DNA of 64,000 nt from a phage, in the sequence record PZ151149.1. One strand, written 5' to 3'. Numbering within the stretch: the stretch's first letter is position 1; every line of letters starts with the position of its first letter. The position numbers and the translations under genes were made by a program. Shown in pieces: positions 25,201 through 51,431 of the stretch. The notes beneath the pieces were generated by a model. The model was not told the origin of the DNA. It was given only the letters and a program-made list of their open reading frames with translations, and did not search any database.

Positions 25201-25347
25201 GAACGAAGATTTGCAATGAGTCCACTGTTTGACCAGTCGGCGGTAACATTCTCTATGTTCCGTGAACTTGTAGATAAACGGTTGAAGGATAATATAGGGA
25301 ATCCACGCGATCCGAAGAATCCGACACAGAGGAAAATTAATGGCTAA
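22261..25347 (+). CDS. 7: baseplate wedge protein gp7
   Basis: Synteny, size 1028 aa (T4 1032). Confidence 0.85.
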   Translation: MIKAPSVTSLTIEKLSANQAYITWDDVGENFFYFVELAETRTRDGEIIPVDELSWVNLGYTAEQNWFEDKNLFPEYYYKFRVAVAAEGFEQSKWVETEEFQTFKTNAYNFSMMREFNLANEFIKEKFTYDNREYVKFNTDLIQASLMKEDFVFSPEYANMTNISNYIVVDENFHEIQDHIEKVCTDINRTMLAEMNGVLYLFERFQPIVKVSNDKGQSWKAYKAFNDRVGNPVSSTCVYQSKTTTYVLGYDRIFYGRQASDTRWSADDVRFSDDTITFAKVGDENDLGFDVEVFGVFSRLTGDTTKYAEAMACSDDYLWVGAKDVIRRIRLKNTPVDTVQGSPTFGEKIFDPDVIRVTGNDKAVIQKMDVIDGKLLVFVTGEVKQRYQDPTKPENVVPSDDAGVYLIESDGLSFQRVFGNTPQEREYIQHGFSNMSTNGDEVFISHYNHHFESILPDPETAAKYELSEAVKYSQEPTYLTDKKIHQTTFRASYDDLRIWELGPQAYYNEADYTWMRRNGVRVWITNDNRPLVVYPEVIYTQEVDTSGILDQNRVNREVYDKGTVTCYLNNVKFEGFKQYASGVMFHKNTGEIIGFYQFNYRVRDQVGVYWKPTNVAFVAELQNQVREVPWVPVHYDQEQVPDLRPLLNKMTPDSFLLENENFRKFSEYYLQFLSDGSGTYYNKLKNLIKNKYPREQDAYEYLWSEMNKRNIYADKNKRDAVVRFFESRKSDFYSTKGVEASYKFLFKLLYNEDVEIEVESQAGLEYDIVVSSTNIDEDIVGRTIYTPTGRANVTYLEREYEGGRLRWRVTIHNLIGRFEEGQVIKSEKTAFEGMILVGVRGKELLSSSIDYINRSRSQYTMKIKSALPVSRYANDVMRFVHPVGFGFIGVTLLTMFINSGLSMKHTETIIQSLKNYKFDSGLPSVYPDRVADLDVDGNIKKDPLTGKALYLTSPLIGEEFPVPPEYDQENSELFHGLKASERRFAMSPLFDQSAVTFSMFRELVDKRLKDNIGNPRDPKNPTQRKING

Positions 25348-26335
25348 TGAAAATAGTGTGATCTATCGCTCAATCATTACTAGTAAATTCAGAACGGAAA
25401 AACTTCTGAATTTCTATAATTCTGTAGGCGATGGAGCAAATCAAATTACAATTTATGGAACGTTTGGACGTTCGGAGCCGTGGTCAGAAAACGAAAAAGA
25501 GGTGGGCTTTGCCCCACCTTATCCGACCGATTCAACGGCTGGCGTTGTTGATATGTGGACCCATATGATGGGTGCGGTTAAGATTAACAAATCACTTCTT
25601 GATGCGGTCATCCCCCGTAAAGATTGGGGTGATACCGGACAGGATAACCCGCGCACGTTCTTTATCAATGACATTGTTGTTGTAAACTCAGCACCATATA
25701 ACCGTACAGATGTTGGTAGCGGCTGGATGGTGTATCGCGTAACCGATGTTCCTGATCGCGGTTACTGCTCGATTTCAAGCATTGATGCTAAAGTAGAGTG
25801 TTTGAAGTTGGGCGGAAAGTGGACCCCAACTCATGAATCAATTGCGCCACCTGTAGGAAAGGGCGATTCTATTGATATGGGTGATGGGTATCGTTGGGAA
25901 TATCTGTACACAATTCCACCTGATGCGGCGATCAACCGTTGCACCAATGAACATATTGTTGTACCGTTCCCCGATGAACTGCGACAAGATCCGGCGCGTT
26001 GGGGCTATGACAATGTGATCACCTGGTATAATGACTATAATCTGCTTTATCGGCTGAAAGTAGTAACTTTGCGTTTTCAGGCTTATATGGACTCTGCGCA
26101 ATTCCCAACTACCGCGTTAGTGGGTAATACTGGTTTCCGTCAGTTAAGCATTATCCTTAACCCATTGGAAAAGAAAGCACGCCCTAGCGATCCAGACGTT
26201 AAAGCGGTTAACGATAAGTACCGACCGCAAGACTTAGAGCCACACTCAGGAGAAATGATCTACATGGAAAACCGACAACCTATCGTTCGTTCACTGGATC
26301 AAACAGAACTTGTTTCTGTATTATTTGAGTTCTAA
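25340..26335 (+). CDS. 8: baseplate wedge protein gp8
   Basis: Synteny, size 331 aa (T4 334). Confidence 0.85.
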   Translation: MANENSVIYRSIITSKFRTEKLLNFYNSVGDGANQITIYGTFGRSEPWSENEKEVGFAPPYPTDSTAGVVDMWTHMMGAVKINKSLLDAVIPRKDWGDTGQDNPRTFFINDIVVVNSAPYNRTDVGSGWMVYRVTDVPDRGYCSISSIDAKVECLKLGGKWTPTHESIAPPVGKGDSIDMGDGYRWEYLYTIPPDAAINRCTNEHIVVPFPDELRQDPARWGYDNVITWYNDYNLLYRLKVVTLRFQAYMDSAQFPTTALVGNTGFRQLSIILNPLEKKARPSDPDVKAVNDKYRPQDLEPHSGEMIYMENRQPIVRSLDQTELVSVLFEF

Positions 26336-26348
26336 GTATATGATTTTA

Positions 26349-26376
26349 AAGCCAATTCGTGAGAATTGGCTTTTTC
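26349..26376 (+). terminator. rho-independent terminator after gene 8
   Basis: Hairpin AGCCAATTC-GTGA-GAATTGGCT then TTTTTC. Confidence 0.65.
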
Positions 26377-26387
26377 TATTTTGGGTG

Positions 26388-26415
26388 TTGACAATCTTGT
26401 CTGGTGAGGTATAAT
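26388..26415 (+). promoter_or_regulatory. sigma70-like promoter (TTGACA-N16-TATAAT) for the methyltransferase cassette
   Basis: Consensus hexamers just downstream of the gene 8 terminator. Confidence 0.55.
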
Positions 26416-26444
26416 GCTCACATCTAAACAACGGAGGATAAATT

Positions 26445-26702
26445 ATGGCACGTCGTAAATTTACAGATAATTGTGAAGCAATTCAGGTATCCCCTTGCGG
26501 TTGGGATGTGATTGCGAACGGTGAAAAGATCGGAGAGATCATCGATCATACTCATTCATCATTAGCTGATTACACCGATGAACTGTGGGAAGGTATCAAC
26601 TTCATGAATGACACTAAGCGATTCAAGACTATTGACGAAGCTATCTATTTTGTATACAATCCAACTTTCGGTATGTGGAGTGATAGAAAATGGCACGCGT
26701 AA
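26445..26702 (+). CDS. hypothetical protein (85 aa), first gene of inserted cassette
   Basis: ORF downstream of sigma70-like promoter. Confidence 0.5.
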   Translation: MARRKFTDNCEAIQVSPCGWDVIANGEKIGEIIDHTHSSLADYTDELWEGINFMNDTKRFKTIDEAIYFVYNPTFGMWSDRKWHA

Positions 26703-27022
26703 ATATTAAATTGCATTACACAATGAATAAAGCTAAGTTCCCAATGCAAAAGCATTACTATGGTCTACGTGCACAAGATCCTAAACTCTATGGTACTCAT
26801 TGGTTTTGTAAACATGATAACCAATGGCACACATACGAAGAAATGCACGAGATGATGAAACAGGGTATTGAATTTAGTTATTCTAATTATGACCATCGTA
26901 TAACTTGCATTCGAAAATTGAAACGATGGATTCGTAAGAATCCGCAATTTAAAAACTATGTGTTCTTTATGTCTCATACTTATCTGGGGCATAGCGTTAC
27001 CGTAACAGCAAAGGTTAAATAA
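26690..27022 (+). CDS. hypothetical protein (110 aa)
   Basis: ORF, His/Cys-containing; overlaps neighbours. Confidence 0.5.
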   Translation: MARVNIKLHYTMNKAKFPMQKHYYGLRAQDPKLYGTHWFCKHDNQWHTYEEMHEMMKQGIEFSYSNYDHRITCIRKLKRWIRKNPQFKNYVFFMSHTYLGHSVTVTAKVK

Positions 27023-27861
27023 TGGCACGACTTTCTAAACAAGAACAAAAATTACACGACCGAGCAATGGAGTTGATTAATTCAGATCGTCCATTGACAT
27101 TTGAAGAAAAAGAATTTTGCTATAATAACTATCATGGCGATGGGCTAGGTGGTTCCGGTGCATTCTTTACCCCAGAATGGCTTGCCTGGGATTTTACCAT
27201 TGACGCACACTGCACAGGAAAAGTATTGGACCTTTGTGCTGGGATCGGTCGTTTATCTTTTTGTATGTTGCATCGTTGTAAGCCAGAAAAGATCGTATGC
27301 GTCGAACTCAATCCAGAATTTGCGCGGATTGGCAAGCGACTATTACCGGAGGCAGAATGGATCACCAGCGATGTATTCGAATTTGAGTCAAACGAGAAAT
27401 TCGATGTTGTAATTAGCAATCCACCTTTCGGGAAAATCAATACTACCAACACAAAGGATGTATTTGAATATACTGGCGGTGAGTTTGAATTTAAGGTTAT
27501 GACGTTAGGCCAGAAGTTTGCCGATGTAGGTTACTTTATTGTTCCTTCTAGTTCCGCTGGTTTTGCCTATTCCGGCAGACCTTATTATGATGAATCAGTG
27601 AAGTCTAATAAATATCTAAAATGGAGCAAACAAACTGGTTTGGTGACTTATGCCGGATGTGGGATCGATACATCAGTCTATCGCGATGAATGGCATAATA
27701 CCAACGTTTTAACAGAAGTGGTTGAGGTTCGGTATTACGAGAAAGAAGCCGTAGAAGCGCCTAAATCGCGTCCTAACGAACAAATAGAAGAAAGTAAGGA
27801 GATTACCTTACCGAAACAGGAAAGCGAGTCTGGGACGCTCTCAGATTTGTTTGACATTTAA
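27022..27861 (+). CDS. SAM-dependent methyltransferase, probable N6-adenine DNA methyltransferase (gamma-class motif order)
   Basis: Motif X-like FFTPEW, motif I VLDLCAGIGRLS, motif IV VISNPPFGK in that order. Confidence 0.65.
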   Translation: MARLSKQEQKLHDRAMELINSDRPLTFEEKEFCYNNYHGDGLGGSGAFFTPEWLAWDFTIDAHCTGKVLDLCAGIGRLSFCMLHRCKPEKIVCVELNPEFARIGKRLLPEAEWITSDVFEFESNEKFDVVISNPPFGKINTTNTKDVFEYTGGEFEFKVMTLGQKFADVGYFIVPSSSAGFAYSGRPYYDESVKSNKYLKWSKQTGLVTYAGCGIDTSVYRDEWHNTNVLTEVVEVRYYEKEAVEAPKSRPNEQIEESKEITLPKQESESGTLSDLFDI

Positions 27862-27865
27862 TTAT

Positions 27866-27893
27866 AAGCCGTCCTTGTGGGCGGCTTTTTTGT
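27866..27893 (+). terminator. rho-independent terminator after the methyltransferase gene
   Basis: Hairpin AGCCGTCC-TTGT-GGGCGGCT then TTTTTTGT. Confidence 0.65.
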
Positions 27894-27901
27894 ATGTATT
27901 T

Positions 27902-27909
27902 TATAAATA
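27902..27909 (+). promoter_or_regulatory. T4-type late promoter TATAAATA upstream of gene 9
   Basis: Exact TATAAATA 28 nt before ATG. Confidence 0.6.
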
Positions 27910-27936: not shown

Positions 27937-28791
27937 ATGGCACAAGTTCCAAAGAAAAGAATAGACACAGGTACGGTCGGCAATCCATCGACTGGCGATA
28001 TCTTATATGATGGCGGTAATAAAATTAACGATAACTTTGATTCAATATATGACGCATTTGCTGATCAACGGTTTAAAGACGTAGACCACGGCGTAGGAAG
28101 AATGGTTATTCATGCAACCGGATACTATCAGAAGCATCCACGTCAAAGCTACTCGGGTTCCGCTGTTGAGATTGGGAGTCTACACGATATCGATACAACT
28201 CAAGGCGCACTTATTGCTATTCTACCTAAAGCAAAGGTCGGAGAGGGTGTTGTATTCATAAATAGTAACGGTAGCCTTTCAACGACGACACCGCTCAATA
28301 TTCGAACTCAAGCAGGTGATTCTATTAGCGGTTATTCCGGTGATGCTACAATAACACAACCATTTTCAAAAGTCACTGTTTGGTGTACTGCCGTTGAAGG
28401 TAGTCGCGTAACATGGCGATTGGGTATCGAAAGTATGTTTACCGATACAACAACGCCAGTAGATAAAACTGTTAACGTAACTGGAGTAGCAACAAACGTT
28501 GCTATTGCCGCAAAAACAGAATATGTTTCCATCAAATTATTAACTACCGCTAGCAATACATCCGGTTCAAAAATGCGTTCAAGTGAAACGCTACTGATGA
28601 TTGATTCTAAAGCCGGAAAAGTTTATGCGACGGAATATGCAGTTTTGCAGAAGACAGAAGATGAACTATACACGGTTCGTTATTTCATCGGTTCCGGCGA
28701 TAAAGTATATGCAGAGTATAAGGCTACTGGCGAAAATATTCGTTTAGCAGTTAAAGCCGTAGACACTATTAAAATCGGGGTTGCTACATGA
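27937..28791 (+). CDS. 9: baseplate wedge tail fiber connector gp9
   Basis: Synteny, size 284 aa (T4 288); late promoter upstream. Confidence 0.85.
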   Translation: MAQVPKKRIDTGTVGNPSTGDILYDGGNKINDNFDSIYDAFADQRFKDVDHGVGRMVIHATGYYQKHPRQSYSGSAVEIGSLHDIDTTQGALIAILPKAKVGEGVVFINSNGSLSTTTPLNIRTQAGDSISGYSGDATITQPFSKVTVWCTAVEGSRVTWRLGIESMFTDTTTPVDKTVNVTGVATNVAIAAKTEYVSIKLLTTASNTSGSKMRSSETLLMIDSKAGKVYATEYAVLQKTEDELYTVRYFIGSGDKVYAEYKATGENIRLAVKAVDTIKIGVAT

Positions 28792-35436: not shown

Positions 35437-36177
35437 ATGTTTAACAACACTCTTTTTGCTCGCCTTGAATCGCAAAAGGATTATGAGAATACACGACAAA
35501 CCGAGATTCTTAATCCTTACGTGAACTTTCACAAATATACAAATACTCAGACGTTAGCCGACGTTATGGTCGCCGAAGCTATTCAGATGCGAGGTGTAGA
35601 ATTATATTACATCCCTCGTGAATTTGTCAAACCAGACATGATCTTTGGTGAGGATGTTCAGAGCAAATTTACTAAAGCATGGAAATTTGCGGCCTATATT
35701 AATTCATTTGATGGTTATGAAGGTGTTGGTAATTTCTTCTCTAGTTTCGGTTATCAAGCCAATGATGAACTAACTTTTACGGTTAACCCCAACCTATTCA
35801 AGCATCAAGTAGATGGAAACGAGCCGAAAGCGGGTGATTTGATTTATATTCCTATGAGTAATGATTTATTTGAAATCAATTACTTAGAGCCATATCAGCC
35901 GTTTTTTCAGGCTGGCAAAAATGCCATGCGTAAAATCATTGCAGAGAAATTCGTGTATAGCGGTGAGGAATTGCGACCAGAATTACAACGCAACGAGGGA
36001 ATCAACGTTGATGAGTTCGCGGATCTGGATCTTGCACCGATCACTAATCTGGACGGGTTAACAGATATCAACTTAGATCAGTACAAAGAAGATAAGCAAT
36101 TCAGAAGCGAAGGACAAGATTTTATTGACCCGTTTGATCCTATTAATGGCAAGGGTTCACCTTTCGCCGATTTTTGA
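35437..36177 (+). CDS. 14: neck protein gp14
   Basis: Synteny, size 246 aa. Confidence 0.85.
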
Positions 36178-51403: not shown

Positions 51404-51431
51404 ATTATAGGCATCTAAATAGCTCTGTCAA
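51404..51431 (-). promoter_or_regulatory. sigma70-like promoter (TTGACA-N16-TATAAT) for the module downstream of hoc
   Basis: Consensus hexamers on minus strand right after the hoc terminator. Confidence 0.55.

Follow-up and report, generated by a model that had tools for sequence, protein, structure and literature searches.

Closest described systems

This analysis concerns a three-gene cassette located between the baseplate genes gp8 and gp9 (positions 26388-27893) in a phage DNA stretch of 64,000 nucleotides (record PZ151149.1; hereafter the window), and above all the last gene of this cassette, which encodes a methyltransferase. The DNA belongs to an RB49-like coliphage of the genus Krischvirus, family Straboviridae (RB49/Phi1/JSE type); a 3.45-kb query reaching from gp8 to gp9 matched 59 Krischvirus records at 90-99% identity, RB49, Phi1 and JSE among them. 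It is likely that the enzyme is an orphan N6-adenine DNA methyltransferase, which is tethered to the sliding clamp gp45 and methylates nascent phage DNA, probably as a measure against restriction. The cassette and the gene have been annotated before, and the architecture of such cassettes is published; what is new is the tail of the methyltransferase.

In T4, the hydrophobic-acidic C-termini of gp43, gp55 and gp33 are experimentally established, interchangeable ligands of gp45, and the epitope of gp55 is located behind a variable flexible linker (PMC2988020; PMC9690074). The methyltransferase shares with these gp45 ligands of T4-type phages the short hydrophobic-acidic C-terminal peptide and the variable flexible linker. 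However, the gp45 ligands described so far are a polymerase and late-transcription factors, whereas the methyltransferase would be a DNA-modifying enzyme, and no report of such an enzyme among the partners of gp45 was found.

The sole link between a methyltransferase and a sliding clamp that was found in the literature is that of the eukaryotic DNMT1 with PCNA (PMC9690074). DNMT1 resembles the proposed phage system in being a DNA methyltransferase with a short clamp-interaction motif and coupling to replication (PMC9690074). It belongs, however, to the C5-cytosine class, which is unrelated to the N6-adenine type, and its clamp motif is N-terminal and internal, whereas the motif of the phage enzyme is at the C-terminal end. 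Furthermore, the binding of DNMT1 to PCNA has been demonstrated experimentally, whereas we infer the binding of the phage methyltransferase to gp45 from its sequence. A report of a clamp-binding motif on a phage or bacterial DNA methyltransferase was not found in a search that left subscription journals mostly outside.

With regard to the cassette, the closest described elements are the PeSLs, in which a consensus sigma-70 early promoter is joined to a stable stem-loop. They were described in Phi1 and RB49 (Arbiol et al. 2010, PMC2839356), where both the promoter and the terminator were shown to be functional, and the work was extended by Comeau et al. 2014 (PMC4122927). PeSLs were proposed to keep early transcription from reaching late virion genes and to promote the shuffling of the flanked open reading frames (ORFs); in one of the five subclasses, the stem-loop is located upstream of the -35 box (PMC2839356). 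The early promoters of RB49 and Phi1 are near-perfect sigma-70 sites (PMC2839356, PMC4122927). Neither of the two papers names the gp8-gp9 locus or any methyltransferase.

The C-terminal tail of the methyltransferase

The gene and the parts of its product are located as follows.

27022-27861, + strand: methyltransferase gene (279 amino acids)
27022-27735, + strand: catalytic domain, residues 1-238
27157-27174, + strand: motif X, GAFFTP
27229-27249, + strand: motif I, DLCAGIG
27418-27429, + strand: motif IV, NPPF
27736-27834, + strand: linker of low complexity and predicted disorder, residues 239-271 (of these, 9 are acidic and 5 basic)
27835-27861, + strand: C-terminal peptide TLSDLFDI with the stop codon, putative epitope binding the gp45 sliding clamp

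The methyltransferase ends with TLSDLFDI, and the gp43 DNA polymerase of Phi1, a phage of the same genus, ends with SLTDLFDI. When the ends of 629 ORFs, representing about 98% of the genome, were scanned against the end of gp43, the methyltransferase tail reached a score of 32; gp43 itself scored 39, and no other ORF exceeded 19. The late-transcription factors gp55 (...SLDQFYEIEN) and gp33 (...TNTLDI) also appeared in the top group. In T4, gp43 ends with SLDFLFG and gp55 with SLDFLYEAND. The third-best match to the gp43 end in the genome was the gp30 DNA ligase of Phi1 (L022, 12134-13630; ...NTVKEVFDV), which may be another client of gp45.

The tail follows a linker of low complexity (residues 239-271), and in the AlphaFold2 (AF2) model the confidence (pLDDT) dropped to about 50 for residues 250-279. 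Among the relatives, the length and the sequence of this linker vary, whereas the tail motif is conserved: relatives with 64-66% identity end with TLTDLFDI, SLSMFDI and LDFVDFSEI. More distant tails read NLFTFTIE in RB43 and DLFTFTIE in Slopekvirus and Miro, and the polymerases of these phages end with NTLFGDDW and NDLFGDW, respectively. All features by which a gp45 ligand is recognized in a sequence, i.e. a hydrophobic-acidic peptide at the extreme C-terminus, similarity to the cognate ligands and a position behind a disordered linker, were found in the methyltransferase, and its tail probably binds the gp45 clamp.

At the nucleotide level, 21 of the 27 nucleotides at 27835-27861 are identical to the end of gene 43 (Phi1, L011, 15971-15997), including the last 15 nucleotides, which encode LFDI and the stop codon. 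A stretch of 27 nucleotides is too short to separate a transfer of the tail from gene 43 from convergence.

Clamp-type motifs in the methyltransferase family

A profile of the catalytic domain was searched against 1.84 billion representative proteins and yielded 1059 relatives. For tail statistics, representatives clustered at 50% identity were used, namely the best 150 of the 1059, 145 of which were complete at the C-terminal end of the domain. Tails of at least 10 residues occurred in 92 of these 145 proteins. The pair [LIMF]F was present in the last 10 residues of 50 of the 92 tails, compared with 6.0 +/- 2.2 in shuffled tails, and the motif Q[LIMF]x[LIMF]F occurred in 17 of the 92, compared with 0.1 in the shuffles. 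The clamp-type motif was concentrated at the extreme C-terminus of the tails.

A C-terminal QL(S/D)LF is the canonical motif for binding of the bacterial beta clamp (PMC9690074). A homologue from a lambdoid phage, with lambda-type O/P replication genes on one side and NinB on the other, ends with ...QQLDLFGEAA; no clamp gene was present in the 13 kb seen of this phage, and the clamp of the host would serve instead. QLxLF tails were also found in homologues from Pseudomonas, Rhodospirillales and Kitasatospora. The type of tail appears to track the clamp that is used, with polymerase-like tails in phages encoding gp45 and beta-type tails elsewhere.

On balance, we lean towards the interpretation that these proteins represent a widespread and hitherto undescribed class of orphan adenine methyltransferases of phages and prophages, which are coupled to the replisome by a C-terminal clamp peptide that has co-evolved with the clamp used. 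The tails of this class would take the forms LSDLFDI and DLFTF in T4-type phages encoding gp45, and QL(S/D)LF in those elements that use the beta clamp of their host.

Homologues with about 45-50% identity were present in about 230 other phage records, among them RB43-like phages, Slopekvirus, Aeromonas and Sinorhizobium phages and one Brevibacterium phage. In RB43 and Miro, the gene is located between the genes for the gp41 helicase and the gp61 primase. The closest cellular copies (53-61% identical) lack the tail and represent the final gene of enterobacterial prophages or islands. In Citrobacter and Enterobacter chromosomes (L005-L010), the homologue adjoins core chromosomal genes, which is a classic position of a moron, and the gene is very common in Citrobacter freundii (887 contigs). 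No record of a T-even phage occurred among the matches listed, and nearly all of the 56 matches from Escherichia phages were Krischvirus.

Class and substrate of the methyltransferase

The gamma-class motifs FFTPEW, DLCAGIG and NPPF, which the first-pass annotation (made from the letters of the window) had noticed in the last gene of the cassette, are indeed present. GAFFTPEW comprises residues 46-53, DLCAGIG residues 70-76 and NPPF residues 133-136, and the resulting order X, I, IV is that of the gamma-class. Across 40 homologues, the positions of the three motifs were mostly invariant or nearly so, and N133, P134, P135, F136 and G137 were invariant. The phage protein family phrog_3820, designated as DNA methyltransferase, was matched with an E value of 1e-115. 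The AF2 model (pLDDT 85.6) shows one Rossmann domain, with two helices paired at the N-terminus and residues 180-225 forming a small insertion. A gene for a restriction nuclease was not detected nearby, as the other genes of the unit are two small ORFs without a Pfam match and the flanks consist of baseplate genes. The enzyme is therefore best classified, from its motifs and its surroundings, as an orphan of the gamma-class and N6-adenine type.

With the gamma-class enzymes (HsdM/N6_Mtase, the Eco57I family, M.TaqI), the protein shares the order X-I-IV and the motifs GxFFTP, AGxG and NPPF. Unlike these relatives, it has 238 catalytic residues without a separate target-recognition domain or specificity subunit, scores below the cut-off of N6_Mtase, lacks a partner nuclease and carries a clamp-type tail. 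Adenine-N6 is the probable site of its chemistry. DNA is the probable substrate, because motif X is HsdM-like and, above all, because the protein possesses a C-terminal tail like that of a sliding-clamp ligand. In the profile of the family, the motif and the preceding helix (efilenykgdaigatGafftP) align with the HsdM subunit of EcoR124. Modest further support for DNA comes from a relative of the Dickeya phage JA29 type, which is fused to a fragment of PF01555, a beta-class DNA methylase domain. In the JA29 homologue and in the family member P0125 (389 amino acids), this fragment is C-terminal and takes the place of the clamp tail.

Several observations weigh against a clamp-tethered DNA methyltransferase. 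The hidden Markov model (HMM) search that had been proposed as a check did not set DNA methyltransferases cleanly apart from those of RNA or protein: Pfam Eco57I just passed (27.2 bits versus a cut-off of 25.3), whereas N6_Mtase remained below its threshold (17.2 versus 20.4 bits) and the best Pfam match was the MTS small domain (38.7 bits), whose family consists mostly of RNA and protein methyltransferases. Another protein of the family, P0136, narrowly exceeds the N6_Mtase cut-off (20.5). METTL5 and PH1948 scored as high as DNA enzymes, so that sequence and fold also allow an RNA substrate, and the AF2 model shows no discrete target-recognition domain, nor is there a gene for an S subunit nearby. 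Many members of the family have no tail, for example the copies in enterobacterial prophages and those of Aeromonas phage CC2 and Sinorhizobium phage phiM19; because such members exist, the tail would be an accessory, optional module that is not needed for activity. The tails of methyltransferase and polymerase in RB43 and Slopekvirus share just the core (N/D)LF. Krischvirus also encodes a T4-type Dam (Phi1, L011, 39544-40356), and a second adenine methyltransferase needs a rationale of its own. Finally, no data on adenine methylation were found for Krischvirus, and one paper from 2026 treats cytosine modifications only.

The alternative that survives best is an RNA methyltransferase acting on rRNA or tRNA (m6A or m2G; METTL5-, RsmC- or TrmN6-like), which alters host translation and whose tail is coincidental or serves another use. 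Fold and HMMs alone do not separate the two substrates, and in addition to the MTS match and the missing target-recognition domain, PH1948 and RsmC were the best sequence matches in the PDB, and the original annotation of RB49 reads 'similar to rRNA guanine-N2-methyltransferase'. We nevertheless regard an RNA substrate as unlikely. The NCBIfam equivalogs were far below their cut-offs (RsmC 29.3 versus 295, TrmN 16.6 versus 350), motif X (GxFFTP) and the helix ahead of it match HsdM in the alignment and not the RNA enzymes, and in other phages the gene is found among replication genes. A polymerase-type tail, as well as the QLxLF tails in the family, would make no sense on an enzyme modifying RNA.

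A second alternative accepts the clamp but not the methylation. The tail could compete with gp43, gp33 and gp55 for gp45 and thereby tune replication or delay late transcription, and methylation would be secondary or absent. The near-identity with the polymerase tail and the early expression from a consensus promoter are in agreement with such a competitor, as is the finding that, in T4, the tails of gp43, gp33 and gp55 can replace one another and occupy shared sites on the clamp (PMC2988020). However, the catalytic motifs are kept throughout the family, tailed members included, which indicates selection on catalysis, and beta-clamp motifs occur on the same domain in temperate elements, where a role in regulation is not obvious. 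A mere competitor is therefore rather improbable, and tethering of an active DNA methyltransferase remains the preferred interpretation.

The T4 Dam-type orphan enzymes with anti-restriction function resemble this methyltransferase in being phage-encoded, early-expressed adenine methyltransferases without a partner nuclease, but the latter belongs to a separate family. T4 Dam is an alpha-class enzyme. The Dam of Krischvirus ends with ...EVYVTNVD and has no clamp-type tail. In Krischvirus SAP, cytosines are hypermodified, whereas they are canonical in TB34, which is 99.96% identical, and no pathway was identified (PMC13390438, 2026); a link between this difference and the gp8-gp9 methyltransferase was not seen.

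Organization and age of the cassette

The remaining features of the locus are the following.

25340-26335, + strand: gp8 (Pfam Phage-Gp8, E 2.7e-143)
26348-26373, + strand: terminator-like hairpin 3' of gp8 (11 pairs and a T-run; fold -16.3 kcal/mol)
26388-26415, + strand: early sigma-70 promoter TTGACA-16-TATAAT (12/12 consensus match)
26433-26438, + strand: GGAGGA, Shine-Dalgarno sequence of ORF1
26445-26702, + strand: ORF1 (85 amino acids, mildly acidic; phrog_16603)
26690-27022, + strand: ORF2 (110 amino acids, basic; phrog_12630)
27866-27887, + strand: intrinsic terminator closing the early unit (9 pairs, 6 of them G-C, and a T-run)
27902-27909, + strand: late promoter box TATAAATA ahead of gp9
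27937-28791, + strand: gp9 (Pfam T4_gp9_10_N, E 4e-40)

A unit of three genes between gp8 and gp9 with its own promoter and its own terminator had been described in the first-pass annotation, and every one of these elements was found in its place. ORF1 and ORF2 overlap by 13 nucleotides and ORF2 and the methyltransferase gene by 1 nucleotide, which indicates translational coupling of all three ORFs. The ORFs on the minus strand beneath the cassette (up to 106 amino acids) fall entirely within the three plus-strand genes and were treated as their shadows.

The promoter at 26388-26415 is the sole perfect sigma-70 match in the surrounding 4 kb. In the entire window, six perfect TTGACA-N15-18-TATAAT sites were detected, whereas 0.14 would be expected, so these sites are most probably real phage signals and not due to chance. 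The others are located at 51404-51431 (minus strand), 50833, 53076, 57487 and 35601 (minus strand). The last one overlaps a plus-strand ORF (35437-36177) and may be fortuitous. Ahead of the promoter at 51404 (minus strand) there is a strong hairpin rich in G+C with a T-run, and the two together represent another element of the PeSL type.

The hairpin at 26348-26373 appears to close the late transcript of gp6, gp7 and gp8 and, at the same time, to provide the stem-loop of a PeSL-type element; its position upstream of the -35 box corresponds to one of the five published subclasses. The further characteristics of a PeSL are also present, i.e. the promoter at 26388-26415, GGAGGA at 26433-26438 ahead of the ATG at 26445, and an intergenic location with an AT-rich sequence upstream. 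The cassette is thus a known kind of element. Like other PeSL cassettes, it combines a consensus sigma-70 promoter with a stable stem-loop in AT-rich DNA between genes, drives non-core ORFs and insulates the adjacent late virion genes, and it occurs in the same group of phages. Unlike the published PeSLs, it is located in a conserved virion module and not in a hyperplastic region, and it is fixed in the genus instead of varying among close relatives. Its downstream end consists of the terminator and the late promoter, without a second early promoter.

The cassette is, moreover, a moron in the classical sense, as it has its own promoter and terminator and as the corresponding junction in T4 contains no insert. 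The genes 8 and 9 of T4 are adjacent, as had been claimed, with a gap of 63 nucleotides. The proposal of an acquired moron holds with regard to the autonomy of the unit and its absence from T4, but the unit is not sporadic. Of the 59 Krischvirus records, 58 align with 80% or more of the query from gp8 to gp9 and contain the full insert, and all gp8 homologues with more than 95% identity belong to Krischvirus. A divergent metagenomic relative (L020) carries a methyltransferase with 65% identity in the same slot. Conservation of the cassette at this site across all relatives had been named as a point that would speak against acquisition; it was found at the level of the genus, but it does not extend across other genera of the Straboviridae. 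Because all but one of the 59 Krischvirus records have it at this site and T4 lacks it, the cassette is most probably an old moron of genus level and not a recent pickup. Its base composition (35-42% GC; flanks 37-48%) bears no signature of foreign DNA, and the insertion is not datable by GC.

In L020, gp8 is followed by a terminator, TTGACA-17-TATAAT, the methyltransferase gene, a terminator fused to TATAAATA, and gp9. The hairpin has the same position behind gp8, and ORF1 and ORF2 are missing.

ORF1, ORF2 and database annotations

Neither ORF1 nor ORF2 had a match in Pfam or a match near the threshold in NCBIfam (best for ORF1 12 bits versus a cut-off of 500). Homologues of ORF1 were found in Krischvirus only, apart from three further records with 60-80% identity, of which the two listed (FV3 and HMD-6) are rV5-like. 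Among 5.8 billion proteins, just 5 clusters belonged to ORF2, whose AF2 model was of low confidence (pLDDT 62.9) and too poor for a fold search. The original RB49 record (L025, 1238-1484; AY343333) divides ORF1 into the short ORFs 140w and 141w; a frameshift or a sequencing error is the probable cause, since other genomes show a single ORF of 85 amino acids.

The two small ORFs had been regarded as possible partners of the methyltransferase, and they could in fact be specificity or regulatory subunits, or all three proteins could form an anti-defence system. The translational coupling within one operon and the joint conservation in 58 Krischvirus genomes are consistent with such a three-protein system. 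The distribution of the genes points in another direction. In L020, the slot has the same signals but contains only the methyltransferase gene, and about 230 other phages possess the methyltransferase without ORF1 and ORF2. Homologues of ORF1 and ORF2 (67% and 61% identical) form an overlapping adjacent pair in the rV5-like phages HMD-6 (L002, 2756-3330) and FV3, where they are located among small early genes without a methyltransferase nearby, and ORF2 alone is present in about 26 rV5-like phages. Furthermore, ORF2 exists as two alleles in Krischvirus genomes (about 98% and about 70% identity), the second of which has been swapped in between flanks of 93-100% identity. In the window, the segment 26540-26940, which extends over the 3' part of ORF1 and the greater part of ORF2, is 60-86% identical to RB49, whereas its flanks are 93-100% identical; it most probably represents a small recombinational replacement, i.e. 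a mosaic patch, within the cassette. The separate evolutionary history of the two ORFs thus speaks against the suggested partnership. A three-protein system is as improbable as a mere clamp competitor, and ORF1 and ORF2 do not appear to be obligate partners of the methyltransferase.

Because the methyltransferase of L020 stands alone, the pair occurs elsewhere without a methyltransferase and ORF2 has different alleles, the methyltransferase seems to be the old resident of the gp8-gp9 slot and the pair a separately mobile, later arrival. All three proteins of the cassette begin with MAR, as had been noticed in the first-pass annotation. As a functional signal, this shared start was dismissed as incidental, since the homologues of ORF1 and ORF2 in HMD-6 begin with MSL and MAH.

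The GenBank names within the methyltransferase family are inconsistent and comprise prmC or release factor glutamine methyltransferase, putative RNA methylase, radical SAM protein, DNA methyltransferase and hypothetical protein; the labels prmC, RNA methylase and radical SAM protein are mostly wrong. A PrmC/HemK-type methyltransferase of release-factor glutamine, as annotated in the phages 011D4, kaaroe, ECD7, kvi and E26, is very improbable, since the weak match to TIGR03534 (37.4 bits versus a cut-off of 199.1) covers motifs I-IV only and both the clamp tail and motif X indicate DNA. None of these alternatives explains the clamp motifs throughout the family as well as tethering does.

Proposed mechanism and implications

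At the level of transcription, the terminator behind gp8 would stop late read-through, while the consensus sigma-70 promoter would drive ORF1, ORF2 and the methyltransferase gene from the start of infection; the second terminator would insulate gp9, which is served by its own late promoter. ORF1 and ORF2 would have landed later between the promoter and the methyltransferase gene. The tail peptide of the enzyme would dock at the site of gp45 that is shared by gp43, gp33 and gp55, so that the enzyme would ride on the clamps along replicating phage DNA and methylate adenines during synthesis. The progeny genomes would carry the mark by the time they are packaged and would be shielded against restriction by the host.

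A benefit of the methyltransferase against restriction is probable. The phage analysed here, like RB49, is reported to be without hydroxymethylcytosine, and the T4-like genera carrying this gene (RB49-like, RB43-like and Slopekvirus) are reported or inferred to be without it (PMC8056088). The anti-restriction role fits the distribution of the gene because its T4-like carriers are of this kind.

The cassette itself is ordinary for phages of the RB49 type, and its significance rests on the tail of the methyltransferase. The QLxLF tails throughout the family make the idea testable in lambdoid prophages with the beta clamp of E. coli, and methyltransferases tethered to a clamp could serve as tools to label newly made DNA. 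Binding of the tail to the clamp, if it occurs, would be a case of replication-coupled DNA methylation outside the eukaryotes, of which no report was found in the literature searched, and the first prokaryotic analogue of DNMT1-PCNA. For gp45, it would add a new class of clients beside the polymerase and the late-transcription factors, and the beta clamp would gain such clients too. Such tethering would also explain how fast-replicating DNA is protected in T4-like phages with reported or inferred canonical cytosine (Krischvirus, RB43-like phages and Slopekvirus), and how the rapidly replicating DNA of phages with canonical bases could be methylated completely before it is packaged.

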